The translations under genes and the position numbers were made by a program. A stretch of DNA of 38,564 nt from the UHGV virus genome UHGV-1336581; one strand, given 5' to 3'. This DNA comes from a virus. The notes below the pieces were generated by a model. The model saw only the letters and a list, made by a program, of their open reading frames with translations, was not told the origin of the DNA and made no database searches. Shown here piece after piece: positions 19,062-38,564 of the stretch; within the stretch, counting starts at the first letter, position 1, and the number at the start of each line of letters is the position of its first letter.

Positions 19062-19107
19062 ATTCGTAATGCGAAGGTCGTAGGTTCGACTCCTATTATC
19101 GGCACCA
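19062..19107 (+). other. 3' fragment of a tRNA-Thr gene (about 46 nt, ends ...GGTTCGACTCCTATTATCGGCACCA); attachment-site core
   Basis: T-arm GTAGG/TTCGACT/CCTAT, acceptor 3' strand and CCA present, anticodon-loop CGTAATG partly present, but no 5' acceptor strand (GCCGATA) upstream, so not an intact tRNA. Match to thrW is from memory. Confidence 0.6.
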
Positions 19108-19220
19108 TTCTAACGTCTCCCCAAGTCTACTCAAGTATTTAAAAACCTCTTATAATCCGCATGTTAGCGCCCCTTTTAGTCTTTTGACGTCTACTTAAGT
19201 ACCCCAAAATCTACAGTCAA

Positions 19221-19242
19221 TTGGGGGTACTTTTGGGGGTAT
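19221..19242 (+). repeat. TTGGGGGTACTTTTGGGGGTAT tandem motif (candidate integrase arm-type site)
   Basis: Identical 22-mer recurs at 38399-38420; inverted copies of TGGGGGTAC near 19197 and 19263 flank it; lies directly upstream of int. Confidence 0.5.
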
Positions 19243-19273: not shown

Positions 19274-20488
19274 GTGAAACTCAATGCCCGTCAAATAGAC
19301 ACTGCCAAGCCAAAAGAGAAGGCTTACAAGCTGGCTGATGGTGGTGGTCTGTATCTCCTGGTAAAACCTAGTGGAGGAAAATACTGGCGCTTTAAATATC
19401 GTGTAGCTGGTAAAGAGAAGCTGTTAGCACTAGGTGTGTATCCTGAAGTTACCTTGGCTGATGCTCGTGCAAAACGTGAAGAAGCTAAAAGGGGTATCGC
19501 TGGGGGTATCGATCCGATGGAAGCGAAACGAGAGGAAAAGATTGCCCGGGAAACGCAGTTAAACAATACCTTCAAAGATATTGCCCTTGAGTGGCACAGC
19601 AGCAAATTAAAAAAATGGTCTGCTGGTTATGCTTCAGATATCCTCGAAGCCTTCAACAAAGATGTGTTCCCTTACATTGGCAAAAAACCAATTGCCGAAA
19701 TCAAACCACTTGAACTTCTGAATGTGCTGCGACGCATCGAGGGGCGCGGTGCTACAGAAAAAGCCAAAAAAGTGAGGCAGCGGTGCGGGGAAGTTTTCCG
19801 CTATGCAATAGTCACTGGTCGCGCAGAGTATAACCCTGCCCCAGATCTTACTAGCGCGATGCAAGGCCATGAATCTAATCATTATCCTTTCCTCACAGCC
19901 AAAGAATTGCCTGATTTTTTCAAGGCATTGTCCAGTTACTCAGGAAGTGCATTGGTTGTTATGGCGGCTCGTCTACTGATTATCACTGGTTTGCGAACTG
20001 GCGAACTGCGCGGTGCATTATGGGATGAAATCGATCTCAACAAGGCTATCTGGGAGATACCTGCTTCACGGATGAAAATGCGTCGCCCTCATGTGGTGCC
20101 TTTGTCTAAGCAGGCTCTTTCTCTTATTGGGCAGATTAAAGAATTAACTGGTAATTATCCGCTTATGTTTCCCGGCCGTAATGATCCAAGGAAAACAATG
20201 AGCGAGGCTAGCATAAACCAAGTATTTAAACGCATCGGCTATAACGGAAAGGTTACTGGTCATGGATTCCGGCACACCATGAGCACGATTTTACATGAGC
20301 AGGGCTATAACACCGCGTGGATAGAAACGCAGCTTGCACACGTTGATAAGAACTCAATTCGTGGCACGTACAATCATGCGCAATATCTGGACGGGCGGCG
20401 CGAGATGCTCCAGTGGTACGCCGACTATATGGATTCGCTCGAACATGGCGGTAACGTGGTGCATGGCAAGTTCGGAAAATGTGGATGA
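19274..20488 (+). CDS. int: Tyrosine integrase, P4-type (N-terminal arm-binding domain)
   Basis: LNARQIDTAKPKEKAYKLADGGGLYLLVKPSGGKYWRFKYRVAGKEKLLALGVYPEVTLADARAKREEAK is the P4-integrase N-terminal signature; C-terminal HxxR...Y catalytic region (GHGFRHTMSTIL...HV...RGTYNH); GTG start, adjacent to the tRNA fragment. Confidence 0.9.
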   Translation: MKLNARQIDTAKPKEKAYKLADGGGLYLLVKPSGGKYWRFKYRVAGKEKLLALGVYPEVTLADARAKREEAKRGIAGGIDPMEAKREEKIARETQLNNTFKDIALEWHSSKLKKWSAGYASDILEAFNKDVFPYIGKKPIAEIKPLELLNVLRRIEGRGATEKAKKVRQRCGEVFRYAIVTGRAEYNPAPDLTSAMQGHESNHYPFLTAKELPDFFKALSSYSGSALVVMAARLLIITGLRTGELRGALWDEIDLNKAIWEIPASRMKMRRPHVVPLSKQALSLIGQIKELTGNYPLMFPGRNDPRKTMSEASINQVFKRIGYNGKVTGHGFRHTMSTILHEQGYNTAWIETQLAHVDKNSIRGTYNHAQYLDGRREMLQWYADYMDSLEHGGNVVHGKFGKCG

Positions 20489-21414: not shown

Positions 21415-21428
21415 CGCACCATACCGCA

Positions 21429-21839: not shown

Positions 21840-21916
21840 TTAAATGGCTACGGGGCTATTGCCCCCAGCTATCCACCAGCAAATAAAAGTAACTTAATTC
21901 GATAGCAGGAGTTTTT

Positions 21917-23430: not shown

Positions 23431-23434
23431 ATGG

Positions 23435-23614
23435 TTACTCCTGTTCTTTGGCCTTGCGGCGCTGGCGGCGTTTGATCTCGCCTTTTGCAGCAGTAACTAA
23501 AAAACCAGCGGTACTTTCGCCAGGTTCTTTAAGTTGCTCAATATCATCCATTACTTCATGTGGGATTCTGACAGTTGTCATTTGTGATTTTGCGTTCTTT
23601 GCACCAGTTGCCAT
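23435..23614 (-). CDS. Small ribbon-helix-helix-like DNA-binding protein
   Basis: MATGAKNAKSQMTTVRIPHEVMDDIEQLKEPGESTAGFLVTAAKGEIKRRQRRKAKEQE has a beta-strand/helix pattern like CopG/Arc; divergent from the gene starting at 23802. Confidence 0.4.
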   Translation of the reverse strand: MATGAKNAKSQMTTVRIPHEVMDDIEQLKEPGESTAGFLVTAAKGEIKRRQRRKAKEQE

Positions 23615-23801
23615 TTCTGGATCTCCTAAAAATTGGTGTATGTCAGTATACGCAAAAAAAATGATAAAAAAAGGCTTGAAGTGTATTTCACCAGTAAGTA
23701 AATTAAAAAGCAAAGGTGAAATACACCTAAAAGAGCAACGCCCCGCAGTGCTCGCAACACATGCAGGGCGTCTAACCAAACCGTTAAATGAGGTAACGAT
23801 T

Positions 23802-24167
23802 ATGGCTGGAACACAGCATACTCAAACTCACCCTAAATTTATATACACCTTCCTGGCGGTGCACCGTGATTGCATGGCTGACGGTAAAAACACTGTACAC
23901 GTAGCCGCCGATACGCTGGTTGATGCCTGCAAGATGCTCAATGACATGGGCTATATCTCGGCAACATGGAAAGGGCGCGAAGAAAACACGCTGTTTATTC
24001 AGAAATGCGAAAACAATTTTATATGGCGTTTTATCGCCCTGAGTACGGCACAACCGCGCGTGATTCACATCGAGGCCACCAGCGAACAGGAAGCACGCCA
24101 GCAATCTCCTGATGGCTGCGTGATGGTATTCACTGCCCGTATTCGCCAGGAGGTGGAGCATGTGTAA
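23802..24167 (+). CDS. Hypothetical protein
   Basis: Internal ATG of the long open frame, preceded by GAGGTAACGATT (RBS-like) and a divergent AT-rich promoter region; 122 codons; stop overlaps next start. Confidence 0.5.
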   Translation: MAGTQHTQTHPKFIYTFLAVHRDCMADGKNTVHVAADTLVDACKMLNDMGYISATWKGREENTLFIQKCENNFIWRFIALSTAQPRVIHIEATSEQEARQQSPDGCVMVFTARIRQEVEHV

Positions 24168-24384
24168 TGCAACATGGCCTGATGCAGCGGTAGACACTAT
24201 CAAAACGCTGATGGATTCACTTATTGAGATTTCTGCTATCGCTGGTGTGGCGCATAAACACGCAGCCAGAGAATCAGAATGCATCTTCCATTATTTAGCA
24301 TTTGTGCAGCTAAAAGCCGATCAGGCACTGGATAAGGCCGGAAAAATTATCATGGCTGATGTGCAGGAGGTGCACTATGCATAA
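24160..24384 (+). CDS. Hypothetical small protein
   Basis: 74 codons, start overlaps upstream stop, stop overlaps downstream start. Confidence 0.45.
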   Translation: MCNATWPDAAVDTIKTLMDSLIEISAIAGVAHKHAARESECIFHYLAFVQLKADQALDKAGKIIMADVQEVHYA

Positions 24385-24742
24385 CCTGTCAATTTCTGAC
24401 CTTAACAGCATTCAGTTTGACGAGAAATTTACCGGGCAGTTGCTGGTCAATGTGGAGAACGGGCGCATAGTGCGTAATTATCACCTGCCGGATGGTGCAA
24501 TTGCCGGAAGCGTTGAAGCATTGCTGGAACTGGCGGAACGTGCGCGACTGATTAAGCCGTCAACGAGTCATCACGATGATGATCTGCATTTTACCGGACG
24601 TATGGTGAGTCACTACGAAAACGGCGTCGAGGTATCCTGCGAACGGCTGCGTGATGATTGCTGTTTCGGCACACTGCCGGAATTTATCGAGTTGCTGACC
24701 AGTTGCGGTTATCAGGTCATTCAGGGGGGTAAACATGCGTGA
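24377..24742 (+). CDS. Hypothetical protein (paralogue of the 24961 gene)
   Basis: ATG preceded by AGGAGG; N-terminus MHNLSISDLNSIQFDEKFTGQLLVNVENGRIV resembles the 24961 protein. Confidence 0.5.
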   Translation: MHNLSISDLNSIQFDEKFTGQLLVNVENGRIVRNYHLPDGAIAGSVEALLELAERARLIKPSTSHHDDDLHFTGRMVSHYENGVEVSCERLRDDCCFGTLPEFIELLTSCGYQVIQGGKHA

Positions 24743-24968
24743 TGATCGTTTTAATTCCCTGAAACGGGAATTTGATGGCGCACAGGAAGATGCAGCGGGC
24801 GCATTGTTGAGCGTTGCTGACATGATGAAAGCTGCATATTTTCTTATCAATACCAGTGGCTACAAGTCAGAGGGTGAAATGATTCTTAGTATTGCGTCAG
24901 ACTATGCGGAATATGTGGCAGAGACGCGTTACAGAAGAAAATTCACGGAGGATGTAAGCCATGCATAA
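24735..24968 (+). CDS. Hypothetical small protein
   Basis: 77 codons, overlapping stops and starts in the operon. Confidence 0.45.
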   Translation: MRDDRFNSLKREFDGAQEDAAGALLSVADMMKAAYFLINTSGYKSEGEMILSIASDYAEYVAETRYRRKFTEDVSHA

Positions 24969-25161
24969 TCATGAAGCGCATGTACCCGTAGTGCTTAATG
25001 TGCCAGATGATTTCACCGGACGCGTACTGGTTTACCTAGATAAAGGGAAAGTGAAATCACAATGCCGACTGAAAAGTAATGAGATTGTTGGTTCTCCTGA
25101 ATTTTTTTCTGAACTTTGTATTCGTGCGGAAATAAAACCGGAACTGCTGACAGGAAAATAA
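24961..25161 (+). CDS. Hypothetical small protein (paralogue of the 24377 gene N-terminus)
   Basis: MHNHEAHVPVVLNVPDDFTGRVLVYLDKGKV shows the same MHN...DxFTGxxLVxxxxGxV pattern as the 24377 protein. Confidence 0.45.
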   Translation: MHNHEAHVPVVLNVPDDFTGRVLVYLDKGKVKSQCRLKSNEIVGSPEFFSELCIRAEIKPELLTGK

Positions 25162-25165
25162 AACC

Positions 25166-25456
25166 ATGAAAAAGAAAAATTCTGGCTTTACTGCCAGCGG
25201 TCTCTCTCGGCCTGAAATCAGACACGGAGATATTTACCGCGACACCAGACGTGGGGGACGAGTGGTTATTCGTCACGTTACGCCAGGCAATATCACCTAC
25301 CGCCGTGAGGCTTACGAATATGACTGCGTAATGCCGCGCCGTCAGTTTGAGCGTGATTTTATTCTGGTTGAAAACAAACAACAGGCGGTGGCGAGACGTG
25401 CAGCCACGAATATTAAAAAAATCCGGGCAATGTTGGTTGCGGGAGGTAAGAAGTGA
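25166..25456 (+). CDS. Hypothetical small basic protein
   Basis: 96 codons; stop overlaps the start of the helicase-like gene. Confidence 0.45.
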   Translation: MKKKNSGFTASGLSRPEIRHGDIYRDTRRGGRVVIRHVTPGNITYRREAYEYDCVMPRRQFERDFILVENKQQAVARRAATNIKKIRAMLVAGGKK

Positions 25457-26865
25457 AAAACGCACCGAATTTAAAATATCAGCCGAAGGATAAATTCACC
25501 GAGGTAATCATTTTTGCCGGGACGGATGCTTACGCCCATGCTCAACACTGGATTGAAAGCGAAGGACGAAAACACGGCGATAACGTACCACCTGTTTACC
25601 TGGGGCCAAAGCAACTGGCAGACCTGGCGAATATCCGCATTGTCGACGATGAACGCCGCTTTGCGCGTGTCTATCTCGCGGGGGAGATCGAACCAATCCA
25701 GATCAATGCTATCGCTGAAAAGCTGGCGCTGGCTGGCGTACAGGAGGCGAAATTATACAAAGGTATCACCGACGGGGAGCCGGAGAACTGGCACGACTAC
25801 CTGCAACGGATCCGCGAACAGGCTGAGCGCGGGGAAATACTTACTGACGAGCAATACAGCCAGCGAAAAACCACGCTACCAATGAGCATTGGATCGGAAG
25901 GATATGATTCACAGCTTAGCTATGTAGTTAAGGGCGTGATTCCGGCTAATTCGCTATGTAGCACATACGGTGCGAGCGGTTCTTATAAGTCGTTCCTTGC
26001 GTGTTCGTGGGCGTGTCATGTTGCTACCGGTATCCCGTGGGGAGGTCGCAGGGTTGTACATGGTGCGGTGATGTATGTCGTTGGTGAGGGCGGGATCGGT
26101 GTTCCTCGTCGTATCAAGGCATGGGAACTGGTGAACAGTGAGCAGGTGAAAAATCTATACCTGGTAAATCGTCCAATTTTTCCGGCCGCACCGGGTGATG
26201 TTGATGAAATGGTTATTGCTGCCCGACAGGTTGAGCAGGAAACGGGTAAACCTGTACGCATGATTATTCTGGATACTCTGGCGCGTTGCTTTGGTGGCAG
26301 CGATGAAAATGATGCGCGGGATATGGGGGCATTTGTCCATGGATGTGACGAACTGAAACGACGTACAGGCGCTACAGTGCTGGTAATTCACCATTCCGGC
26401 AAGGATGAAACAAAGGGTGCGCGCGGTTCCAGTGCGTTTCGTGCAGCACTGGATGCAGAATACCGGATACGCCGTGAAGGTGCAGGCAGTGAAGCCCTGG
26501 TTATCGCATGTACCAAGATGAAGGATGCGGAGGAACTGAAAGAAATGGCTTGCGATTTGCGCGAGGTTGAGCTTTTCAAGGATGAGGGCGGGGAGTTAAT
26601 CACGTCGCTGGTGCTGGAGGATAAGCCCCGTCCGCCGGTTGAACTGGAGCGCATCGAGGAAGCTGGGAACAAGACGGAGAATCACGCCGCACTATGGGGT
26701 TGTATTCGTTCACGCACGCAACGCGGAGATAAATGTACTATTCCGTTGTTGCGCGATGACATGAAAAAGCTGGGGTATGAGATGAAAAACTTCCGGCGCT
26801 GGCTGTACAAGCTGGAAGGTGACGGCGTAATCGCTATTGACGGTGATGATGTGCGCCCACTGTAA
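25453..26865 (+). CDS. RecA-fold AAA ATPase, replicative helicase-like (RepA/DnaB-type)
   Basis: Walker A GASGSYKS, Walker B-like MIILDTLARCFGG, and VIHHSGKDETKGARGSSA typical of RepA/AAA_25-type helicase-ATPases of integrative elements. Confidence 0.7.
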   Translation: MKNAPNLKYQPKDKFTEVIIFAGTDAYAHAQHWIESEGRKHGDNVPPVYLGPKQLADLANIRIVDDERRFARVYLAGEIEPIQINAIAEKLALAGVQEAKLYKGITDGEPENWHDYLQRIREQAERGEILTDEQYSQRKTTLPMSIGSEGYDSQLSYVVKGVIPANSLCSTYGASGSYKSFLACSWACHVATGIPWGGRRVVHGAVMYVVGEGGIGVPRRIKAWELVNSEQVKNLYLVNRPIFPAAPGDVDEMVIAARQVEQETGKPVRMIILDTLARCFGGSDENDARDMGAFVHGCDELKRRTGATVLVIHHSGKDETKGARGSSAFRAALDAEYRIRREGAGSEALVIACTKMKDAEELKEMACDLREVELFKDEGGELITSLVLEDKPRPPVELERIEEAGNKTENHAALWGCIRSRTQRGDKCTIPLLRDDMKKLGYEMKNFRRWLYKLEGDGVIAIDGDDVRPL

Positions 26866-27266
26866 AAAGTGAAGCGTAAAAGTGAGGGGGGAAGGGAATA
26901 TTTAAAAATCATCCCTGTTTTCCTCACTTTCTCACCTGTATATAGATCAAAAAATGAGGAATTAAAAAAACATTGCAAAACAACATATTACAACAATAAA
27001 GAAAACGACTGAGGAGCAGAACAAGAATAACAAAAAGTGAGGAACAAAAGTGAGGAATGGTGAGTTAATAGAAATGAGGTAATAAAAATAACAGGTAGGT
27101 TAAAAAACATACCATGCAAGATATTAACTAAAACTTAACTATTTACCTCACTTTTGCGTATATATAAGGATTAAAAAGTGAGTGCTTAAAAATATATTTA
27201 AAATCATATTGTTATTAACTTCATAAATTCTCACTGCGCAGCAGGTGAGGAATTAAAAAATCAGGA
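26866..27266. repeat. AT-rich iteron region (many copies of AGTGAGG / TGAGGAA in both orientations); candidate replication origin
   Basis: Repeated AAAGTGAGG(G/A/T), GGTGAGGAATT, AATGAGGAATT, and inverted CCTCACTTT within about 400 bp directly downstream of the helicase-like gene. Confidence 0.4.
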
Positions 27267-27917
27267 ATGTTAAAAATGAAAACAGAACGTTACATACCTC
27301 AGGGTATGACTTACATAGAGCGTGAAGAGCTGAAAAGTTTTGCGACATCATGTGGACTATGCGGCGATATTCACCGCTTTACCAGAACTCTGATCATGAT
27401 TGCGCACTGGATGCGACAGGGACAGAGCGTAAGTTTTACAGAATATGCCGGGCGGTGGTTGTGGCCACGAATAATACGCCGATGATTTTTACCGAACACG
27501 CCGGAAGCGTTGCCCGTCGCCGTGTTATTTTCCAGTTTAACTGTCGCGTCAGTGAGGAAGATAAGGACCCCGGAAAAAGAGCGGGCGCTGCTGCTGAGGA
27601 AACGGAACAGCAAAGAGGCACTGGAGGTAAAGCTGTACGCCTTCTGTGACCACCTGAAGCGGCTAGCTGATTGCGTGGGAATGCTGGTGGATTATGCCGG
27701 TAAGGTTGCTGCGCCAAATACTCAGATGGATGCTTTATTCTGCGGCATGGTCGGCGAACTGACTAACCTACGCGTCATGGCGCAGCGGGCAGAAGTAGAG
27801 GCAGAATTGCTTGACGTTATCCGCAACGATCCGGATTTTAACGAACAGGCAAAAAACCGCAGAGCGGGTGGAATCTGGACACGCTTAAATCCTTTACTCG
27901 TGGTGTGTCTGCCGTAA
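27267..27917 (+). pseudogene. Decayed P4-alpha/D5-type primase-helicase C-terminal remnant (fragments in three frames)
   Basis: Three overlapping partial ORFs in different frames; one carries VVVATNNTPMIFTEHAGSVARRRVIFQFN, resembling the conserved C-terminal motif of D5/P4-alpha helicases. Tentative. Confidence 0.35.
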
Positions 27918-28304
27918 GCAAGCAGACTGCAAACATTCTCGATTATCTGATGAACAGATTCTCACCGGTTAAACCACTGGCATCTGATGATGTTCAGGCA
28001 TTCGGTAGGTTCGAGCGCAGCAGTCAGGAAAATGCTGCTGTCGATGTACAGCGGAAAGTAGCAGGAACTGTCTGATGCATTACTACGGGCTCCTGGACTC
28101 GATATGGAGCAGCTGAAACGTCTCGCATTTTCACGAATCATGTCTGAGAACGGGCAGGTTATTAGTGCAGTTGCCGCTCTTAAAACATGACTTAGCTTGA
28201 GAACGAATCAACAAGTTAGAGAAAAATCACCCCTAACAGCTTAAAATTTACATAAAAAGACTTTGACTTCTTATAATTGCTGCTATTATCAGCATAAGAA
28301 AAAT

Positions 28305-28334
28305 AAAACCTCGCCAGACAGCGGGGTTTTTCTG
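28305..28334 (+). terminator. Rho-independent terminator
   Basis: AAAACCTCGC-CAGACA-GCGGGGTTTT hairpin (10-bp stem, one mismatch) followed by a T run. Confidence 0.5.
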
Positions 28335-28408
28335 TCTAAAAAGAACTATAAAAACAACATGTAGTGTCGAAGCATTGACGCAAGCACTACATTTAGCGGA
28401 GTACTAAC

Positions 28409-28633
28409 ATGGCTGAAATCAATTACGAAAAAATTCTCTTGGAAACGGGACTTGTGGCATCAAATACTTCAGGTATCCAGTTCCCACAACAATTTGGCGC
28501 AATGAGCCATGAGTTCGGCGGCTTAAGCGGTGTTGCAAGTTTTTCTCATCAACATGAGATGACTAAGCTTAAGTGTTCTACCAGAACAACTGGCTACTCA
28601 ACTTTGCATGTAAGCACCACTACAAAAGCTTAA
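28409..28633 (+). CDS. Hypothetical small protein (upstream partner of the protease gene)
   Basis: 74 codons, 18-nt gap before the protease gene; no family recognised. Confidence 0.4.
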   Translation: MAEINYEKILLETGLVASNTSGIQFPQQFGAMSHEFGGLSGVASFSHQHEMTKLKCSTRTTGYSTLHVSTTTKA

Positions 28634-28651
28634 CAAGGACGTTACCATCCC

Positions 28652-29548
28652 ATGCCCAATCTGGCCCAAGTCTTGGAGGAAATCCAAAGCCTCCAAGACG
28701 ATTCTCGCTTTGATATTGTCCGCCGTAAATACATAAAAGCTTTGAGCGACAGTACTGATAGAAACGTAATATGTTACTACACAGACTTTTTACATAACGG
28801 TAATCATCAGCATGTCAGCATCAATGATGATGACAAAAATGGTTTCATGGCTGTTGTTAACGGAATGGATAGAACGAAAGGCTTAGACCTTTTCTTGCAT
28901 ACCCCTGGTGGTTCTATAACTGCGGCTGAGTCTCTGGTTTACTACCTTAAAAAGCTTTTTAATGGTGATATTCGGGCCATTGTTCCTCAAATGAGCATGT
29001 CTGCAGGAACAATGATTGCGTGTGCCTGCAAAGAAATTGTAATGGGGCATCATTCAAGTATCGGACCTTTTGATCCTCATATCTTTGGTGGTCTTTCAGC
29101 TTATGGTATTTTGGAAGAGTTAAAAAATGCTATTGATAGCATTCAAAAAGAACCTTCCAGCCTCCCGATTTGGCAAACAATCATCTCGCGCTACCCACCT
29201 ACCATTTTTGATACAGCTAGCAAAGCTATTCAGCTTGCCGATGATTTGGTTACTGAATGGTTAAAAAATGGAATGCTTAAAGATTTACCTGAACCTCGGC
29301 GTAGCGAACTCGCCACTGCGATTGTCAAAAGCTTAAACAATCGTACGGATACGAAGGATCATTCTCGGCATATCCACGCAGAGAGAGCCATTGAATTAGG
29401 TTTGCGGATCACTCAGCTTGAAGACCATCCCCAGTTTCAGGACGCAGTTCTTACAGTACATCACTGTTGTACACAAACCCTTTTCAACACTCCTACAGTT
29501 AAGCTTATTGAAGGCTCTAATAACCAATCCTTTATTCGGCATATCTAA
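28652..29548 (+). CDS. SDH-family / ClpP-SppA-like Clp-fold serine protease
   Basis: [20 protein letters not shown] and [19 protein letters not shown] resemble the catalytic-serine region of ClpP/S49-type peptidases. Confidence 0.6.
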
Positions 29549-29866
29549 AAGTTTGGGGGTACTTAAGCGCCCCCTTCTCGATTATGCGTAAAATAATATT
29601 AATAATTAATCACTTACATAGTGCAAGCCATGTCATGTATGAATCGAAAAACTGAAACTCATTGTTAACTTAGATTATCATCGGTACTTTCGATAAAGTT
29701 ATCCGGGGTCATCATAACTCTTTATGTGAAGTATCCCCAATATAACCTCATAATTTAACTTATTGTAGTGTATGTATTTTTATTATTTAAATATCAATTG
29801 TTTTGTTGAGATGCAAGCGGCTCGCCAAAACCGTTTTGATATTTATTGCCCGGTTAGATCGGCTTT

Positions 29867-30180
29867 CTAGGACAACAGATCACGTACCCGGTTTGCCGTC
29901 CAGTCCGGGATATGCTCAATGACGTAACGCAACCATTTTTCTGGCTCCTCCTTGTTCAGACGGCACGTGCCGATCAGCAAGTACAGCACCGCAGTATGTT
30001 CGCCACCGCTGTTGGAACCTGCGAACAACCAGTTTTTCCGGCCCACTGCCACACCACGTTAGGCGTTTTCGGCGATGTTTTTGTCGATTTCCACCCAGCC
30101 ATTATTGCAGTATACGTTCAGCGCATCTATATGAATGCATCCCGTTTCGTAGTTTTGACGTTGATGGTAGATGAAAGTAC
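29867..30180 (-). mobile_element. IS66-family transposase 3' remnant (frameshifted C-terminal ~100 codons only)
   Basis: Minus-strand translation gives ...ALNVYCNNGWVEIDKNIAENA and, after a frameshift, VGRKNWLFAGSNSGGEHTAVLYLLIGTCRLNKEEPEKWLRYV, matching the conserved IS66 TnpC C-terminus; no N-terminal transposase sequence. Confidence 0.6.
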
Positions 30181-30749
30181 CGGGCATGAAACAATCAGTA
30201 AAAACGATGGGGCAAAGCATGACTAAGCTGACCATTAACAGAAAACCGAAAGGCATTTACGGCACGCCGCAGAAAACGACGCAGGCGGCACAGGAGCAGG
30301 ATAAAACCCCATCGGCGCATAAAGTGATGCTCGGTAACCAGAAAGCGCAGCAGAAGCTCACAGGGGCGACATCGTGGCGGCATATGACCAAACGCCAGCG
30401 CAAAAATCGCAGGCGCGTTAACCGCCTTACTGAGTTGTGGCCTGAATTATTCAACCGGGAAGCACCGAAGCCGCTTAAGGTGGGAATATTTGACGACCTG
30501 ATGCAGAATCTCGCCGTCAGGGGGCTGGCATTCGGGCCAGGGGCATTACGTGCGACGCTGGCATCTTATGCGCAGTGTCCGCGCTATTACCGCGCCTTAA
30601 TGGCTGGTGGGGTACGCTACGACCTGAAAGGCCAGCCGTGCGGCGAGGTGACACCACAGGAACAACAGGACGCAGAAACGCGGCTGGTGGCGCTGAATGA
30701 GAAGCGCAAACGTCAGCGCCGGGCAGCAAAGGAGAAAACAGGCGCATGA
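30171..30749 (+). CDS. FinO/ProQ-family RNA chaperone-like protein
   Basis: WPELFNREAPKPLKVGIFDDLMQ and ALRATLASYAQCPRYYRALMAGGVRYDLKGQPCGEV match the ProQ/FinO domain; real start probably an internal Met, since the 5' end overlaps the IS66 remnant. Confidence 0.65.
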   Translation: MKVPGMKQSVKTMGQSMTKLTINRKPKGIYGTPQKTTQAAQEQDKTPSAHKVMLGNQKAQQKLTGATSWRHMTKRQRKNRRRVNRLTELWPELFNREAPKPLKVGIFDDLMQNLAVRGLAFGPGALRATLASYAQCPRYYRALMAGGVRYDLKGQPCGEVTPQEQQDAETRLVALNEKRKRQRRAAKEKTGA

Positions 30750-31033
30750 TTCACGACAGCAAAGCGGAAGCACTGGAAGCGCGTGGTCTGTACCGGAGAG
30801 CGGCGGCTCGGTGGGCTGAGGTCATCATGCTGGCGAATGATGACAAGGCACGGGAACAGGCGGCAAAACGTCGCGCGGAATGTATCCACAAGGCAGCACG
30901 CCCACCAGCAAGGCAGGATAATTTCGGGGAGATGCGCAAAACCATCAGCCGGGCACATGTCGGGATGGGATTACATCAGCCCAATGGTGAGGCATTCAGG
31001 AAATACCAAAAAAAGAACAATTGTAGTCAGTAA
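30746..31033 (+). CDS. PerC-like transcriptional activator family protein
   Basis: DSKAEALEARGLYRRAAARWAEVIM resembles the PerC N-terminal signature; ATGA overlap with the upstream gene. Confidence 0.5.
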   Translation: MIHDSKAEALEARGLYRRAAARWAEVIMLANDDKAREQAAKRRAECIHKAARPPARQDNFGEMRKTISRAHVGMGLHQPNGEAFRKYQKKNNCSQ

Positions 31034-31167
31034 CAGAGGATGGGATTCTCTTGGTTTTTTGTTGATGCTTTCTGAGGAAATCTACTACGTTGCTGAGCAG
31101 ATGAATATTCAATTGCATCTGGGTTCCTGATACGATTAATCTGAATATTTTCATTTGGAATAGGGAT

Positions 31168-32310
31168 ATGAATAAAACTTTAATTGCAACATTAGTCGGT
31201 ATAGTAATGTTAACCGGATGTGGGCCAGAAGAGTTAACTCCAGAACAGAAACAGGAAGTAGCGGCTCTTAAAGCTGAACTGTCGCAAACGGAAGGTGAAA
31301 TATCAGCAGCTAAGGAAGTTGACCAGCAGTTTTCTGGTGGGTTGATAAAAAATCTGACAACAGCAAGACTGGAAATATTAGGAACTAATAAAGCGCTTTT
31401 GGAACAGCGTATTAATGCTATTGAATCAGGCGCCAAAATTGATGTTGTTGTATCTGGAGTAAAACCTGATCCTGAGCTTGCGGCTTCAATTAAAACTGAA
31501 ATTGACAGCTTAGATGCAAAAATCAACGAAGCCAAAGCTGATGCTCGTCAGTATAGTGGTGGTCTGATAAAGGTACTAAAATTATCTACTGTTGCCACTG
31601 AAGAGCAGACCATGGCAATGTTGCAGCAAAAGTACCTCACAGCCAAGTATGGCCTCGCTGAAGTTAAGCTGGCATCAGTACAAGATAATGACGCAAAAAA
31701 CAGTACTGAAACGGAAGTAACAGCCAAAAATTCCCAAGAGCAACTTCCTTTACTCCCGCCAGCGGATGGTCCGTTTGGCTTAGAAGCCGGTCTTACACAG
31801 AAAAACATCGAAGATATGATCGGTGCTAAGCTCAAGCCACTACCAGACAGTGTGAATCTGTATACTTCTGATAAATTACCGAAGCAAAACGCAGATTTTG
31901 AAATGTATGGTTTGTTGATCTCCCCGAAAGCTGGTTTATGTCAAATACGGGCTTTAGGAAAAAATATTGATACTGATAGCTATGGATTGGCTCTTAAATC
32001 CAAGTTTGAAGAATTGAGTAATTCTTTAAGTTCTCTGTATGGAAAGGCTGATACTACAGACTTTTTGCTGGCTGGTTCAATTTGGAAAGATCCTCAGGAC
32101 TGGATGAGGGGGCTAAACAAAAAAGAACGCTTCTTATCTGCCACATGGAAGGGAACAAAAGAAATACCATTAAAAAACAATATTGATACTATATATATTG
32201 AGGCCAGAGCGAACAATTCCACTCAGGGATATGTCTATTTGCAGTACTCATTTGCAAATGACGAAATTTGTCAGGCAGAAATTGAAGGGGCGAAAAAAAG
32301 TTCCCTTTAA
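31168..32310 (+). CDS. Lipoprotein of unknown function
   Basis: Signal peptide with lipobox (LVGIVMLTGCG); 380 aa with internally repeated segments (QQFSGGLIKNL / RQYSGGLIKVL). Confidence 0.6.
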   Translation: MNKTLIATLVGIVMLTGCGPEELTPEQKQEVAALKAELSQTEGEISAAKEVDQQFSGGLIKNLTTARLEILGTNKALLEQRINAIESGAKIDVVVSGVKPDPELAASIKTEIDSLDAKINEAKADARQYSGGLIKVLKLSTVATEEQTMAMLQQKYLTAKYGLAEVKLASVQDNDAKNSTETEVTAKNSQEQLPLLPPADGPFGLEAGLTQKNIEDMIGAKLKPLPDSVNLYTSDKLPKQNADFEMYGLLISPKAGLCQIRALGKNIDTDSYGLALKSKFEELSNSLSSLYGKADTTDFLLAGSIWKDPQDWMRGLNKKERFLSATWKGTKEIPLKNNIDTIYIEARANNSTQGYVYLQYSFANDEICQAEIEGAKKSSL

Positions 32311-32321
32311 ACAATCCGTGC

Positions 32322-32348
32322 AAAGCCCCTTAGTAAGGGGCTTTTATA
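32322..32348 (+). terminator. Rho-independent terminator
   Basis: AAGCCCCTT-AGTA-AGGGGCTT hairpin followed by TTATATAT, just after the lipoprotein stop. Confidence 0.5.
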
Positions 32349-32374
32349 TATTAATGTTCAACGGGGGGGATTAG

Positions 32375-32698
32375 ATGAAAGATAATCTAGAAAAACTAAT
32401 TGAAAATACTTTAAAAGATATTCTATTAGCTAATGCTGCTCTAACATTCATTTTTGCAATACCAATGGCTATTATCAGTAGGTATGGGATGGGCATCACA
32501 ATCTGGTTTATAACTGTGCTCATTGCACCTGCTCTGTGTGCAGTAGGTGCATGGCTTGTATCTCGAACATCCGGCCATGCTGAGGAGTTCTTTCATCGTC
32601 GGTGGGCTAAGCGAATTTATGTTTTTTATACTCTTGCGGCTGCCGAGTTTTTGCTTGTGTACTCAATCGCGCAAATAATGAAAAATCTGATGAAATAA
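32375..32698 (+). CDS. Small inner-membrane protein
   Basis: 107 aa with two or three hydrophobic helices; GGGGG-type RBS upstream. Confidence 0.5.
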   Translation: MKDNLEKLIENTLKDILLANAALTFIFAIPMAIISRYGMGITIWFITVLIAPALCAVGAWLVSRTSGHAEEFFHRRWAKRIYVFYTLAAAEFLLVYSIAQIMKNLMK

Positions 32699-32985
32699 TT
32701 AACAAGTTATTATCATGGAGCTTGTGGCTGTTAACCTGCAGTGAGGCGACAATCGTGTATTTATAAAAACTTCCCCTTTTCACTCCCCGCTGTTTCTTCT
32801 GCTATTGCCTTTATGTTTGCATGCACCAACATCTGCCATACCTTTGCAGAAAAATCAGAGCATTCAGTGCCGAAGGTTGGTTTATTGATGCTTTTCGTTT
32901 CATTTATTGCAATTGTCTCTGGTATCATTTCAATTTGTGCAATAATTGCAATAATTGCAATTATTGTCATTCAGAAGGGATCATC

Positions 32986-33153
32986 ATGAAAAATCACGGA
33001 GTAAAGCCAGTTTTACTTTCCCGGAGGCAGATCGAAGCCCTGCAACGCATCCAGGACGAAGAGCGTCAGAAATCTGTGCTTGGTGTGGCACCGTCGATTC
33101 ATGTTATCGCTCGGCAACTGATGGATAAGGCACTTAAAGAGGTGAGACTGTGA
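32986..33153 (+). CDS. Hypothetical small protein (55 aa)
   Basis: ATG preceded by GAAGGGA; stop overlaps the next gene's start (ATGA). The longer track ORF from 32821 runs through a tandem repeat and is probably not coding upstream. Confidence 0.4.
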   Translation: MKNHGVKPVLLSRRQIEALQRIQDEERQKSVLGVAPSIHVIARQLMDKALKEVRL

Positions 33154-33422
33154 AATTAAATATCAGAGTGGATAAACGCCAGCTATGGCAGAAAAAAGAG
33201 AACAGCGAGGCATTCAGGGCGTTGCTGGTGGAAAATCTTCAGCACCGGTTCAGTGGAGAGTTGCCTGATGCTCTAGGGAAGAAACTGGAATCCCTGACGG
33301 TGGAAATTGGCGATTATGGCTTTGTTGATGTTGAAAGCACGACTGCCAACACAGAAATCGTAAAACAGGTCGTCAATGATGTAATGAAAACCACGCTTAG
33401 CCAGCCATCCTGGCGCAACTGA
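33150..33422 (+). CDS. Hypothetical protein (90 aa)
   Basis: Translationally coupled to the preceding small gene; followed by a terminator hairpin. Confidence 0.5.
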   Translation: MKLNIRVDKRQLWQKKENSEAFRALLVENLQHRFSGELPDALGKKLESLTVEIGDYGFVDVESTTANTEIVKQVVNDVMKTTLSQPSWRN

Positions 33423-33427
33423 ATCAG

Positions 33428-33452
33428 TAAGGGGCGGTTATTGCCCCTTTCC
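33428..33452 (+). terminator. Rho-independent terminator
   Basis: AAGGGGC-GGTTATT-GCCCCTTT hairpin immediately after the stop codon. Confidence 0.5.
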
Positions 33453-33504
33453 TCCATACCCACAACGCATTCCCTTTCCGCATGAAATTATTTTTTTATC
33501 GTAT

Positions 33505-34050
33505 ATGCATGAGGTGAGCTACATGTTGATGAGTAAAGCCGAATACGCCAAATACAAAGGCGTAAGCCGCCAGACAGTTTACGACTGGATCGAGAAAGGC
33601 GAAGTGATCATGTCTGGCAAAAAAATTGATGTGGATGCGACAGATCAGCGGAACAGCCCACCAGCACAGGGGAAAGACACCGTTTCTGAAATGTGGCCAG
33701 AGAGAACGCTGGAAATGACGTGGGGCGAGTTCTGGAAAGCAGTTAAGGCCAGAGACGGTAAAATCCCTGCGCCAGTAACGGACGATGACATACGGCAGCG
33801 TGTGCTGAATGCAGCCGGGGAATTAGGCTGGGAAGTGCACTTTCTTGATGATGGTGCTATCTGCCTTGAGGATGATGAAGGACAGCATTACTTTGAACAA
33901 TACAATTTGCGGGGTAATGCCTGGCTGGCAATTCATATGCTGCGTTGTGAACTATGCTATGTTGCCAGCGATTGTCCCGATGAACAGGACACATGGAGTG
34001 AGGCAGGACTAAACGCCCTGGCTGAATGGGAAAAATCAGGCCATCAATGA
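33505..34050 (+). CDS. HTH DNA-binding protein (N-terminal MerR/terminase-small-subunit-like helix-turn-helix)
   Basis: SKAEYAKYKGVSRQTVYDWIEKGEV is a classic HTH; the rest is acidic and unassigned. Confidence 0.5.
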   Translation: MHEVSYMLMSKAEYAKYKGVSRQTVYDWIEKGEVIMSGKKIDVDATDQRNSPPAQGKDTVSEMWPERTLEMTWGEFWKAVKARDGKIPAPVTDDDIRQRVLNAAGELGWEVHFLDDGAICLEDDEGQHYFEQYNLRGNAWLAIHMLRCELCYVASDCPDEQDTWSEAGLNALAEWEKSGHQ

Positions 34051-34054
34051 CCTC

Positions 34055-34330
34055 AAAAAGTGTCAAGTTGAGCAGCTTGCCAGGTTGACACTTTACACTC
34101 TGAACGCGAAAAAGTGTCAACCTTGCTGGAAGCCGCGCCATTACTGGCCTTGTACCATATTCACCACGTCAAAAAACCGAAAAAATCGCGAAAAGTGTCA
34201 AGTTGCCATGCTTAGAAATGCCAGGGATGGTTAAGTTTTGTTAAGGTTTTTCCCGAAAAAGTGTCAAGTGTGTCAATCTGCGATATTAAGATTTATTAAG
34301 GTCTTAAGCCGGAAAGTGTCAACCAGCCCC
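34055..34330. repeat. Array of at least six AAAGTGTCAA(G/C) repeats interleaved with TTAAG-type motifs (candidate binding-site array)
   Basis: Copies near 34055, 34108, 34190, 34255, 34312, plus an inverted copy (TTGACACTTT) near 34084; each later copy is followed by TTAAG(T/A)TTT...TAAGGT. Confidence 0.5.
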
Positions 34331-34443
34331 CTAAGATTTCCTAAGGTGTGATTGAACGTGCTGTAACCTTCTTGTCGCAATGTGGATGAATGACTATAGT
34401 GCTGGTAACTTTGACAGCAGAATCAGATTACTGAAGGAAATGT

Positions 34444-35028
34444 GTGATGAGTTTTTTTAATCTTTATGGGAAAGAACTATTTTCTTTTTTTATAGCGATT
34501 TTAACATGGATACTGAATAACAGATTTAAAAGCAAGGCAAAGTTATCCTATGGTTATCAGCATGGATTTACTTTTCTTCTCAATGAACCCTTACGGAATG
34601 CTAATGGTGAGGTAATATCTAATTCACAGTTGGTGTATACACGATCTATTATTCTTGTTAATGAAGGGCGAGAAAGTGCTACTAATATATCATTGGTTTT
34701 TAACTATAAGCCAATGCATATTAATTTTTGGCCTGTCCACCATTTTGAAGAAAATATTGAACAGGATGGTCGCTATATTATCAAGTTTGAAAGCCTTGCA
34801 CCTAGTGAGTCTATTCAATGTGAAATATTATCAATAAATAGAGAAGTTCCAAGTATTCTATCGATAAGATCTAAAGAGTGTGTGGCTGAGCCAGTGAATA
34901 TCGTGATGCAAAAATCGATTAGTAATATTGCCCTACGTTGCTATCAATTATTAATACTTCTTGGAACTGGCACATTAACATATTTAATTATCGTTATTCT
35001 GCAATGGTTAGTCACTAAAACGGGATAA
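34444..35028 (+). CDS. Hypothetical membrane protein (AT-rich cargo)
   Basis: 194 aa; hydrophobic helices at both ends (FFIAILTWIL; LLILLGTGTLTYLIIVILQWLV); visibly AT-rich. Confidence 0.5.
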   Translation: MMSFFNLYGKELFSFFIAILTWILNNRFKSKAKLSYGYQHGFTFLLNEPLRNANGEVISNSQLVYTRSIILVNEGRESATNISLVFNYKPMHINFWPVHHFEENIEQDGRYIIKFESLAPSESIQCEILSINREVPSILSIRSKECVAEPVNIVMQKSISNIALRCYQLLILLGTGTLTYLIIVILQWLVTKTG

Positions 35029-35294
35029 TCCATTGTATTGAACTTATTAATTGGATATGAGTGCTGATAGGAAACCTATGACCATCACCGAAGCCGATAT
35101 GCTGGAGATGATCCGCAGCATTGCCGGAATCAAACAACCAGCAAGCAAAATTAACAGGTGTTCAGCGCCTGTTTCCGTTGTGCTGCAACAGGAACGCCAC
35201 CAGCGGCGGGAAAACGAAAAGGCGTACCAATGGACGAAGCCAAACAAGTTACGGCGTTAATTAGGGATGCGGGCTGGGATAGCCCGCATTTTGC

Positions 35295-35552
35295 TCACAG
35301 CTTGTTATAAATTTTTCCAGCGAAGTCATGAACCGCCTGAGGAATATCCGACGGCGTACCTAGCATTGTCGGCGCATCGGAAACAAAGAACATGATCGCT
35401 TCTTTGATTTCTTCGAAAGATGGGGTAGGGGTAATGCGCTTGAGATTTGAAACAGCCCGTCGGAACTCCGCCGTATCCATTGGATGCCTGCTAAACCACG
35501 TTGGACTAGAAGCCCAACATTTTACTGCTTCTTTCACCTTAGTGTTCATCAT
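35295..35552 (-). CDS. Hypothetical small protein
   Basis: 85-codon minus-strand ORF with ordinary composition; no family recognised. Confidence 0.3.
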   Translation of the reverse strand: MMNTKVKEAVKCWASSPTWFSRHPMDTAEFRRAVSNLKRITPTPSFEEIKEAIMFFVSDAPTMLGTPSDIPQAVHDFAGKIYNKL

Positions 35553-36108
35553 TTTTCCTTTTGCTTATTACCATACAAAGCATGTGGAAAGAGAAGATTA
35601 ACATGGAAAATATGGGGTTGGTGAGCAAATGGTACTGGTAGCCCGTCGACATCTATCAGCATGATGATGTGAGGCCGTATAGTAAGCCAACAGCCAAGCC
35701 AAACATTAAGCCTAAGGGTAGGGCTTTTTTGTGGCTGGTGGCGTAATGCCAACATTGTTACATGATGTTTTGAGGTATTATCTGCATGTTCGTGGTGAGG
35801 AACCACCAGAACTGATGAGCTTTTGTTTATGCATGTACTGCATGAAAACTGTCCTATAAAGTGGGGGTAGGTGTGCTGAGGAGAACATTGTGAGCTACGC
35901 CAAATTAAATTGTGTCGGGGGTGAACAAGTTTCTTGATAGGTATCAGTAGGCACCTATAGTTATAGGCTTCTTCAATTTTGTGTGCACAATATTTTGTAT
36001 TGATTGGGGATAGGGTTGCACGCAAAATTAAAAAATGTATATTTATTAACGTGTATTTGATAATTTTTAAATAAAATATTTCTCTATGTTTATCATAAAA
36101 GGTTTTTT

Positions 36109-37707
36109 ATGAGCGTGGCAATAAAAACAATGACACCAGTGTCATATTCTATAAAAGTTGATGCGATTAAGAAAAGATTATCATATTTTAGTGATGTTTC
36201 TTTTTTGAGAAATTTTTATGAACACTTCCAAAAAGTAAGGGATGTCGAGGTGGGTATTGTTTCCAATTTCCCTTGGTGTTGCTATCTGGCAATGAAATGG
36301 AAGTTTTGCATGAAGGAAAAAAAGCCTGCAAAAGAAATGAGTAAAAATGATTTTATTGATATTATCAACTTAATCTATAACTTGCAACTAGAAGCATCTA
36401 ATTTAATCGTTGATGATAAAGTTATGCTAAGCCTTAGACGAATGGTGATAAATCAGTTGCTTTATCAATCAACTGATAAATTTAATGCCAATTCATTAAC
36501 AAGACAGTATATTTGGTATTGCTTGAATGATGAATCATATTATAAAGATAAGTTTTTAGAATGTACTGGTTTACATTTGGAAAGCTATTACAAAATGGCA
36601 TGTTATTTTACCGCTATTTCATGTATTAATCCTGATATAGAATCAGAGGTTATTCCATTTAAACACTTGATAATAAACTTGGTTCCGATATTTGGTCCGG
36701 AACAAGTGAAAAGATTTTTGGAATTAACATGCTTAAAAATTGATGGTGTGAGAGATTTTATTGCCCCATATAAATTGGATAAAAACATTACCGCTGAGTA
36801 TTATGAAGATACACCATTCCTCAGTAAACCAATGTTTTTAGATGGCGATGGTGTAGTGATATTATGCAAAAGAATCATGAAGTCAGGGTTTGTCAACCTA
36901 GTTCCAGAATTGTTCAAGCAGGTCTATAAGGAATCTTATAAAGAAAAATTTGGTAAGACGATGGAACTTTATATTTCTCGCTTTCTTGATAAGTACAATT
37001 ATAACTTTAAGACTGAAAGTGAGGTTAAGAAGATTTATAGTGATAATGCAATAAAAAATTGCAAGTCCGTAGATTTTGTTATTTCAGAGGGAGATTCAAT
37101 AGTTTATATTGACTCGAAGGCAATAGAGCCTGCAAAGTTCGTTAAAACATCTAATAATGCTCAGTTGCTAAAGGAAAGGTTGAATAAGAGTTTTATTAAA
37201 GGGATTTATCAAGGTCAGGAATGTGCTTTTAACTTAAATAAAATAGAGATGAGAAAACCATCTTCGAAAGATTCAATGTTAATTGTGGTGCATCGGGATC
37301 ATCATATATCAAATGCAATGCTTGTGCAGGATTTTATTAACCCTGATTTATCAACTGAGTTATCTGAAAAATATCATAGTATCCCCATTGATCTAAAAAG
37401 AATTTACTATATAACAATTGATGAGTTCGAATTATTACTTATGATGTGTAAACAGAAAGAACTATCTATTAATGAGTTTATTGATATGTGTGTGGAAAAA
37501 GATTCATTCCCTCATACTCAGAAGTCTAATCTAAGCATGCACATATATGAATTTGCACCAGAGGGTATTGATGATGATCAATTGATTGTAAAAGGAAGAG
37601 ACTTACTGATTGATGATGTTATTGAAAATATGAAAGAGAGTGCATCAAAATGGTCTGGGAAAGTTGATATGTATCTTAAAATAAAAGATTATATTTTTAA
37701 TTGGTAA
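36109..37707 (+). CDS. Large hypothetical protein (AT-rich cargo); possible PD-(D/E)xK nuclease core
   Basis: 532-codon ORF in a very AT-rich block with an AT-rich upstream region; central SVDFVISEGDSIVYIDSKAIE fits an hhhD...(D/E)xK pattern. The nuclease assignment is an inference only. Confidence 0.55.
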   Translation: MSVAIKTMTPVSYSIKVDAIKKRLSYFSDVSFLRNFYEHFQKVRDVEVGIVSNFPWCCYLAMKWKFCMKEKKPAKEMSKNDFIDIINLIYNLQLEASNLIVDDKVMLSLRRMVINQLLYQSTDKFNANSLTRQYIWYCLNDESYYKDKFLECTGLHLESYYKMACYFTAISCINPDIESEVIPFKHLIINLVPIFGPEQVKRFLELTCLKIDGVRDFIAPYKLDKNITAEYYEDTPFLSKPMFLDGDGVVILCKRIMKSGFVNLVPELFKQVYKESYKEKFGKTMELYISRFLDKYNYNFKTESEVKKIYSDNAIKNCKSVDFVISEGDSIVYIDSKAIEPAKFVKTSNNAQLLKERLNKSFIKGIYQGQECAFNLNKIEMRKPSSKDSMLIVVHRDHHISNAMLVQDFINPDLSTELSEKYHSIPIDLKRIYYITIDEFELLLMMCKQKELSINEFIDMCVEKDSFPHTQKSNLSMHIYEFAPEGIDDDQLIVKGRDLLIDDVIENMKESASKWSGKVDMYLKIKDYIFNW

Positions 37708-38398
37708 TTAAGCAAGGGTGTTATTATCAACACCCTTGCTCATAGTCTTACAATATTAAATGTTGTGTTTTTTATTTATATATTTTATTGCCCATCAAGC
37801 TATTAATTCATCTCGTTGTTTGAGATAGGTTGAGCATTTGTATTTTTTTATCAATTTTATCTGTATGAGCTTAAGCAGCTTCAATAATATCTGCGTTAAA
37901 TTACGCTTCATTCAGAGACGTGCTTGCTATTGACATGTAATCCATGTGCAACAAGATTCCTGCCATAACTTATGCGTTTCAGAGCCGAATCATGGACTGC
38001 TTTAAGTCATTTTTGTAGGGAAAACATGTTCACATGTCAGCACTGATTTGTTTCATCATATCCACTATCTCGAATTTCTGTGTCGATAGATGAATGCAGA
38101 CGGAAATATGTGAATTTTGTGCACGCTCTGCTATTAAGCGAAAACGAGCGTGGGTATATCAACTAATAATTGCCCTCATTAACATAGGTGGTGGCGGGTA
38201 TAATCTCTGTAACCCAGTTGTTCGTGACTACCTACCTCGTCAAATTTTCACACCCGCGAAATAAAAAATACTTCACGCTAGTGGTTATCCTTGGGCATCC
38301 ACCAGCCCTTCATCATTGCCAGCCTGTGAGGCTGAGGCTCGAAGAAAAAGAGTGCTAGATAGTCGATTTTTGCCTGGTTTGGGATAAGGGAAAATTTA

Positions 38399-38420
38399 TT
38401 GGGGGTACTTTTGGGGGTAT
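38399..38420 (+). repeat. TTGGGGGTACTTTTGGGGGTAT, second copy (candidate integrase arm-type site at the distal island end)
   Basis: Exact 22-mer also at 19221-19242. Confidence 0.5.
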
Positions 38421-38480
38421 CTATAAAAATGAAATATGAAAATGTCATTAAATATCAATGTATTTGTTGTTTATGTTTTG

Positions 38481-38500
38481 TTCCTATTATCGCACCATTT
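38481..38500 (+). other. Degenerate copy of the tRNA 3' att core (TCCTATTATCG-CACCATT)
   Basis: Matches TCCTATTATCGGCACCATT at 19091-19109 with one missing G; no tRNA body upstream. Confidence 0.5.
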
Positions 38501-38564
38501 AAATCAAGTAGTTACCCCATATTTAAATACACCACGTTTCCTCCTGTGCCGTATTTGTGCCATT

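Follow-up and report, generated by a model that had tools for sequence, protein, structure and literature searches.

The closest described relative of the gene treated here is GAPS1, which was named by Mahata et al. from the Gamma-Mobile-Trio (GMT) island VPaI-6 of Vibrio parahaemolyticus with WP_005477165.1 as founder; GAPS1 consists of one polypeptide, for which a PD-(D/E)xK phosphodiesterase domain is predicted toward the C-terminal end, and sensor and effector must both reside in this one protein (bioRxiv 10.1101/2023.03.28.534373). With Vibrio GAPS1, several coliphages plate at an efficiency that is orders of magnitude lower, and the exchanges D313A and K328A abolish defence against T7 (bioRxiv 10.1101/2023.03.28.534373). 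The trigger of the founder is the T7 major capsid protein Gp10: T7 escape phages were mutated in capsid gene 10 in 4/4 cases, two of these mutations remade in naive T7 led to evasion of GAPS1, and co-expression of GAPS1 and Gp10 resulted in dormancy, not death (bioRxiv 10.1101/2023.03.28.534373). Family members alone are tolerated and arrest growth only upon co-expression of the capsid protein (bioRxiv 10.1101/2023.03.28.534373). Also, the cloned E. coli homologs EGQ2075554.1, EJP5250929.1 and WP_152927281.1 all protect against coliphages (3/3), and E. coli ZH142-A resists phage BASEL21 only if its native homolog is present, with growth being arrested at high multiplicity of infection (bioRxiv 10.1101/2023.03.28.534373). 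In this study, we analyzed the viral genome UHGV-1336581 (38,564 nucleotides (nt); this whole stretch is called the window) and found that a large AT-rich gene near its end, hereafter gapS1, encodes a member of this family with 532 amino acids (aa).

Other systems resemble GapS1 in part. Upx (PDB 9wuf; a system of Gao et al. 2020) differs in having 1212 aa with an N-terminal atypical and a C-terminal canonical PD-(D/E)xK domain and in sensing the phage terminase, not the capsid, and its structure paper leaves GAPS unmentioned (PMC13099982, PMC13601566). The type II/IIS enzymes N.BspD6I, R.BspD6I small subunit, Bse634I, HindIII, Cfr10I, PspGI and FokI share the restriction-endonuclease-like fold and the acidic/lysine signature with GapS1, whereas GapS1 has neither a partner methyltransferase nor known sequence-specific DNA recognition, carries an extra helical N-terminal region of ~270 residues and belongs to a family with a trigger-dependent, dormancy-type phenotype. 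The lambda RexAB and CarolAnn-type DUF4747 systems are likewise mobile-element abortive or exclusion defences, and a RexAB-like pair occupies the identical slot in other E. coli; however, these are unrelated proteins encoded by two genes, with a membrane partner and without a nuclease motif. Another capsid-sensing single chain is CapRel(SJ46), in which a sensor for the major capsid protein is joined to a toxic effector whose action halts the infected cell, as in GAPS1. Its effector is a tRNA pyrophosphokinase and not a PD-(D/E)xK nuclease, and it has no homology to GAPS1.

Family identity was determined by profile and sequence searches. The protein matched the NCBIfam model NF047931.1 'antiphage_GapS1' with 441.6 bits (E 3.2e-132), far along its length and over the complete profile (protein 20-478 to profile 1-455/455), the curated (trusted) cutoff of this model being 320 bits. 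It is identical at 532/532 positions to the RefSeq entry WP_054626965.1, 'GapS1 family protein', of strain UTAK-5, and the identical full protein sequence was found on 109 contigs. By megablast against 5426 complete E. coli genomes, the 3.5 kb gapS1 region was detected at 99.1-99.9% identity in six, counting genomes with at least 80% of the region at this locus, and four of these six carry the annotation 'gapS1: GapS1 family protein'. A search of a 5.8-billion-protein collection yielded 45 homolog clusters with 25-99% identity, which span the Enterobacterales (Escherichia, Salmonella, Klebsiella, Pantoea, Cronobacter, Pectobacterium, Serratia, Rahnella and others); many of the homologs, down to 25% identity, bear the name GapS1 in NCBI or UniRef. 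The gene is a member of the already known and published GapS1 (GAPS1) family and not a new system. An earlier first-pass annotation, made by a model from the letters of the DNA, had called the product an orphan and a candidate novel single-gene system with a defence function. Its functional guess of a defence nuclease was right, since homology leads to the GapS1 defence family and not to a housekeeping or other non-defence protein; the novelty claim was wrong, and "orphan" does not fit a protein with a curated family model, 45 homolog clusters, an existing RefSeq name and a published family.

For comparison with laboratory-tested homologs, the starts of the cloned inserts given in the supplementary table of Mahata et al. 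were used, which in the case of EGQ2075554.1 comprise 380 nt. This insert start and window positions 36109-36488 agree at 379/380 nt, with one synonymous difference, and at 126/126 aa; therefore, the window gene equals the tested allele as far as the two are comparable, and over these 380 nt it appears to be an allele already shown to defend. EJP5250929.1 and WP_152927281.1 were rejected as this allele and were assigned to other subclades because their N-termini, in the insert starts provided, are only about 17-24% identical. In the part of the supplementary files of Mahata et al. that was available, the accessions WP_054626965 and WP_194242909 were not found.

The predicted active site supports the assignment at the residue level. 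The first-pass annotation had proposed an hhhD-(x)n-(D/E)xK nuclease motif in the peptide VDFVISEGDSIVYIDSK, which corresponds to residues 321-337 of the gapS1 protein. In an alignment of 29 family members with 25-56% identity to the query, E286, D322, K337, A338 and P341 are invariant (29/29), and position 335 is occupied by D in 25 and by E in 4 of the homologs, giving the full signature E286 ... D322 ... (D/E)335-x-K337. The active-site segment of Vibrio GAPS1 was rebuilt by translating the published mutagenesis primers and reads DNKIQGKVV-[D313]-FLHQRNGTSIFIDA-[K328]-GVEPNQKI, containing D313...D326-A-K328. It aligns without gaps to the window segment KSV-D322-FVISEGDSIVYIDS-K337-AIEP. Both segments have the same D-to-K spacing (15 residues) and the common flanks VDF and EP, and D322 and K337 are the counterparts of Vibrio D313 and K328. 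Because of this gapless match and the invariance in the 29 homologs, the motif at residues 321-337 is, by sequence comparison, the true active site of the family. With the founder, the window gene thus has in common the full-length match to the family hidden Markov model, the organization as a single protein, the PD-(D/E)xK domain in the C-terminal half and the D-x12-(D/E)-x-K spacing; with the family as a whole it shares the occurrence as AT-rich cargo of mobile elements.

A structural model was calculated with AlphaFold2 from the 29-sequence alignment and was confident (mean predicted local distance difference test (pLDDT) 88.8, predicted template modeling score (pTM) 0.89). Its N-terminal half is all-helical, contains the conserved residues P55, W56, K63, R110, Q116 and Y119, and was by itself assigned to no family or fold. 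The nuclease core follows in the order helix 275-295 (with E286), short strand, strand 323-327 directly after D322, strand 330-337 (with D335 and K337), helices, strands 389-394 and 432-436, and a helical C-terminal tail. The predicted active-site residues thereby map to the expected helix and two consecutive strands, and the restriction-endonuclease-like fold toward the C-terminus is present as expected for GapS1. In Foldseek searches Upx (9wuf) was the best hit (E 1.4e-5), followed by Nt.BspD6I, Can2, Cdn1, Hjc and McrBC. Structurally, the model comes closest to N.BspD6I and to Upx, a defence protein; the resemblance to Upx spans most of the GapS1 length, with low template modeling (TM) scores of 0.34/0.19. 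When the 29-sequence alignment was used for a profile search of PDB sequences, no hit reached E<=1, and no solved GAPS1 structure was found by sequence. The nuclease reading of the first-pass annotation, for which the lack of a nuclease-like fold in a structural model would have been fatal, withstood this comparison: structure prediction and Foldseek yield a restriction-endonuclease-like core, and the PD-(D/E)xK assignment agrees with both the AlphaFold2 fold and the conserved residues.

With a probability of roughly 0.9, we conclude that the gene encodes a stand-alone anti-phage immune protein of the GapS1 family with sensor and effector in one chain. In the uninfected cell, GapS1 would be inactive. 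Upon infection, a phage structural protein would be recognized, presumably by the helical N-terminal half, and recognition would switch on the C-terminal PD-(D/E)xK phosphodiesterase with E286, D322, D335 and K337 as its putative metal-binding and catalytic residues. The activated nuclease would then cut a nucleic-acid target, and the resulting growth arrest, dormancy rather than lysis, would leave the phage cycle incomplete and protect the population. By analogy with the founder, we infer that the trigger of this allele would also be a capsid protein. What this scheme takes from the family literature is anti-phage activity, the need for D313/K328, triggering by the capsid protein, and dormancy; family membership, conservation and position of the residues, the predicted fold, the single-gene organization and the cassette context come from the present analysis.

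Several points weigh against this scheme. The E. coli homologs are only 24-29% identical to Vibrio GAPS1, from which the data on capsid trigger and dormancy derive, and the nuclease target of the founder is not known (bioRxiv 10.1101/2023.03.28.534373). The trigger of the E. coli GAPS1 clade may differ from that of the Vibrio founder. The role of the N-terminal helical half as sensor or regulatory part is presumed from the paper's statement on sensor and effector in a single protein. The identity to the tested EGQ2075554.1 covers only the first 380 nt of the insert, the part given in the supplementary table, and EGQ2075554.1 is not among the four accessions listed for the exact-sequence cluster. 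Finally, a scan of the gapS1 protein against PADLOC-DB v2.0 (2023) returned 0 families at E<=10. PADLOC had been named in the first-pass annotation as a means of checking the gene; it was run in this version, and the defence match came from NCBIfam instead. Most simply, the empty result reflects a library older than the family, for which NCBIfam 2026 has a model, and is not a sign of novelty. Pfam gave sub-threshold matches only (TPD, DUF4143, DLH and CDI, around residues 252-349), of which TPD and DUF4143 are nuclease-like and which were not used as evidence, and PHROGs gave a match only to a family of 'unknown function'. The gene seems unknown to older resources because PADLOC 2023 has no hit and the Pfam matches stay below threshold. 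The absence of a model from PADLOC 2023 and Pfam is also what speaks for a novel, previously undescribed single-gene defence system, as the first-pass annotation had it; given the curated NCBIfam model, the RefSeq gene name and published experiments that apparently include this allele, the probability of such a system is next to nil.

Among the other explanations, an Upx-like mode of action is the least improbable. The protein would then be a PD-(D/E)xK sensor-nuclease that recognizes, in place of the capsid, the large terminase or a different phage protein and breaks down single-stranded DNA or replication intermediates. It is only the similarity in fold that suggests this mode, and we regard it as unlikely: Upx has 1212 aa and two nuclease-like domains compared to 532 aa and one here, the two proteins show no relation at the sequence level in the PADLOC (0 families at E<=10) and PDB profile searches (nothing at E<=1), the TM-scores are low, and in the one GAPS1 member whose trigger has been mapped, the escape phages were mutated in the capsid in 4/4 cases. 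Membership in Upx itself was rejected, as a protein of 532 aa with one nuclease core resembles Upx at the fold level only. The similarity to restriction enzymes could likewise be taken to indicate a solitary restriction-type endonuclease or nickase, which would cut phage DNA directly and constitutively, without a phage-protein trigger and without dormancy; however, fold similarity within the PD-(D/E)xK superfamily says nothing on specificity. Because no methyltransferase is encoded in the cassette or beside the homologs in four contexts, a constitutive DNA cutter would be self-toxic, whereas family members are tolerated alone and arrest growth only together with the capsid protein, so that constitutive cutting is very improbable.

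The gene could also serve the island that carries it, as a nuclease for excision, replication, packaging interference or addiction and not for host defence. The island does carry its own integrase, an Icd-like gene and a RepA-type helicase, yet gapS1 lies outside the conserved backbone, and islands whose backbones are 95% identical lack gapS1 and have a RexAB-like pair instead. Just 6/5426 complete E. coli genomes have gapS1 at this locus, homologs reside in unrelated elements (a P2-like prophage, a P4-type satellite and Klebsiella prophages), and cloned homologs defend without any island. A function for the island is accordingly hardly credible. An extension of the GapS1 reading is somewhat less remote, though still doubtful: GAPS1 and Upx might be distant relatives with a common sensor-plus-PD-(D/E)xK architecture, the E. 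coli clade might sense a non-capsid protein, and the attR-proximal slot of this apparently non-GMT, non-P4 island at thrW, in which GapS1 and the RexAB-like pair alternate, might be an uncatalogued defence hotspot. If this holds true, the slot could be mined for further cargo.

The identification matters little as a discovery, since the family, the catalytic residues, the trigger of the founder and the phenotype have been published and pipelines already name the gene. The GAPS1 work of Mahata et al. reportedly appeared later in Nature Microbiology. What the analysis adds is the finding that this GapS1 allele occupies an exchangeable slot of an island at thrW, which lies in tandem with a prophage carrying PifA-like and PD-T4-3 genes. 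Also, the heuristic of looking for a solitary large AT-rich ORF (open reading frame) beside an attachment (att) repeat with an hhhD...(D/E)xK motif found a real defence gene from raw sequence.

Composition and position of the gene agree with an acquired element. The GC content of gapS1 is 0.306 (0.287 at third codon positions, GC3), compared to 0.455 for the rest of the island and 0.461 for the window overall. The upstream intergenic region (35553-36108) is AT-rich with a GC content of 0.379, and the ~90 nt directly 5' of the ATG are almost pure A/T. A promoter/terminator scan of 35500-38564 gave 15 candidates compared to 14.9 expected from shuffles; there was no excess, and no promoter is claimed. 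Since a perfect copy of a 23-nt repeat lies beyond the gene, the distance from the end of gapS1 to the distal att-side repeat is 690 bp. The first-pass annotation had described a single large gene of atypical AT-rich composition, with an AT-rich upstream region of its own, close to the distal att-side repeats and horizontally acquired at the end of an integrative island; the ORF, the GC values, the distance to the repeat and the island with its repeats agree with this description in every part. The coordinates of the features are given in Table 1.

Table 1. Features of gapS1 and the surrounding island in the window.
Feature	Position	Strand	Basis or remark
3' 46 nt of tRNA-Thr (thrW), partial copy left by upstream prophage	19062..19107	+	UTAK-5 comparison
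attL-side 23-nt direct repeat ATTGGGGGTACTTTTGGGGGTAT	19220..19242	+	perfect pair with 38398..38420
Tyrosine integrase, 404 aa, P4/CP4-type with arm-binding domain	19274..20488	+	Pfam Arm-DNA-bind_3, Phage_int_M, Phage_integrase; NCBIfam PRK09692
Variable cargo slot, gapS1 and 85-aa ORF	35242..37964		blastn vs strain N921
Small divergent 85-aa ORF in slot	35295..35552	-	
gapS1 coding sequence	36109..37707	+	one uninterrupted ATG-to-stop ORF, 532 aa plus stop
N-terminal all-helical region, about residues 9-273	36133..36927	+	AlphaFold model secondary structure
PD-(D/E)xK phosphodiesterase core, about residues 275-440	36931..37428	+	
Catalytic signature E286...D322...D335-S-K337	36964..37119	+	codons 36964-36966, 37072-37074, 37111-37113, 37117-37119
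attR-side 23-nt direct repeat ATTGGGGGTACTTTTGGGGGTAT	38398..38420	+	perfect pair with 19220..19242

The immediate surroundings of gapS1 were delimited by blastn against E. coli N921. The backbone is 95.5% identical up to window position 35241, and homology resumes at 37965; of the slot in between, only 61 nt (35682-35742) are common to islands with other cargo. The gapS1 gene sits alone in a swappable slot of 2.2-2.7 kb at the attR end. In N921 the slot (6591-8083, GC 0.35) contains genes for a DUF4747 protein and a 199-aa hydrophobic, membrane-like protein, and the same pair occupies the slot in many other E. coli and is unrecognized by PADLOC 2023. In the exclusion systems lambda RexAB and CarolAnn, DUF4747 forms the RexA-type domain, and the N921 pair is, judged by its domains, a RexAB/CarolAnn-like exclusion pair. 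Just upstream of the variable slot, a 194-aa AT-rich ORF (34444-35028, plus strand; GC of the region 0.37) belongs to the backbone and is conserved whichever of the two cargoes an island carries; its product has hydrophobic segments at both termini and matched no family.

The contexts of the homologs differ between genera. In Salmonella, the homolog lies at the end of a P4-type satellite, after a P4-type primase (Toprim/DUF927) and Ogr/Delta; in Pantoea, its neighbors in a P2-like prophage are gpA/DinI on one side and the portal gene on the other; in Klebsiella, homologs are found beside Phage_ASH/SymE genes and also near the ends of prophage genomes. No neighbor gene is shared across the E. 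coli, Salmonella, Pantoea and Klebsiella contexts, as expected for a single-gene system, and the 85-aa ORF was rejected as a partner gene, being absent beside the homologs in other genera. For both reasons, gapS1 is a self-sufficient single-gene cassette.

The island extends from 19220 to 38420 in the window (19.2 kb) and is bracketed by the two copies of the 23-nt repeat, for which 0/100 shuffles gave a match even when 3 mismatches were allowed. The identical repeat pair brackets the island in UTAK-5, where it begins ~110 bp past tRNA-Thr (thrW, beside proBA) and stops short of the remnant of a LysR gene and paoDCBA. The UTAK-5 segment 3295-3633 matches window 19062-19400 at 100% identity, and tRNA-Thr is annotated in UTAK-5 at 3265-3340; because the window has no more of thrW than its 3' 46 nt, an ARAGORN scan of the window found no complete tRNA. 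After the integrase, the island encodes an HTH (helix-turn-helix) regulator, an AntA/AntB-type antirepressor, an Icd-like protein, a RepA/AAA_25 helicase, an SDH-type Clp-fold protease, ProQ/FinO, PerC and several unknown proteins, with gapS1 as the last gene. Whereas the founder resides in a GMT island, the carrier here appears to be of another kind, a tyrosine-integrase island at thrW flanked by 23-nt direct repeats. In the Pfam/NCBIfam results for nine large island ORFs and in the RefSeq annotation of the identical island nothing is named Gmt, a screen by names and annotation with no direct Gmt sequence comparison; a GMT island as carrier is unsupported, and the direct repeats and the tRNA-side location fit a classical integrase island. 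Likewise, psu, delta, sid and an alpha-type primase are absent from the RefSeq annotation of the identical island and from the Pfam/NCBIfam scans, and a P4-like satellite was rejected, the replication gene being the RepA/AAA_25 helicase.

Two further observations concern the island. The UTAK-5 copy contains an IS1 element at 14173-15137 (777 bp extra, beside an IS66 remnant), at the equivalent of window ~29.9 kb, which the window copy does not have. Upstream of the small HTH gene and the AntA-type gene, the intergenic region 21429-21552 holds two 17-nt repeats (21429-21467) and two tandem 33-nt repeats with 88% identity (21487-21552) with the common core ACCCT(T/G)AGGGT, which could be operator or iteron sites.

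Window positions 1-19061 represent the end of a myovirus-type prophage. Because this prophage is inserted into thrW and the island follows, the prophage and the gapS1 island are arranged in tandem. Toward its thrW end, the prophage encodes on the minus strand a 778-aa KAP-family P-loop NTPase (13520-15856) that matches PADLOC PifA nearly full length (E 7e-79) and, more weakly, QatA and PDC-S20, and that is probably a PifA-like exclusion gene. Between this gene and the thrW remnant, also on the minus strand, lies a gene for a 274-aa LEM-3-like GIY-YIG nuclease (16487-17311) with a full-length match to PD-T4-3 (E 7e-140). The last prophage gene before the partial tRNA, a 314-aa ORF (17677-18621, minus strand), has no Pfam, NCBIfam or PADLOC hit and is, beside the two defence genes, a candidate for further cargo. 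Judged from the gene content, the PifA-like, PD-T4-3 and GapS1 genes make the region around thrW in this strain a compound locus of mobile elements and defence. In the tail module, a Gin/Cin-type serine invertase gene (12679-13269, plus strand) adjoins the tail-fiber (Collar domain) and tail-fiber-assembly genes on the opposite strand (11508-12688, minus), and the segment 11508-13269 looks like an invertible host-range switch. Within the structural region of the prophage, which has a GC content of 0.55-0.59, there is an AT-rich patch (3204-4354, plus strand; GC 0.29) that contains two ORFs, one of 175 aa without hits and one of 214 aa encoding a transglycosylase domain, and that may be an acquired moron.

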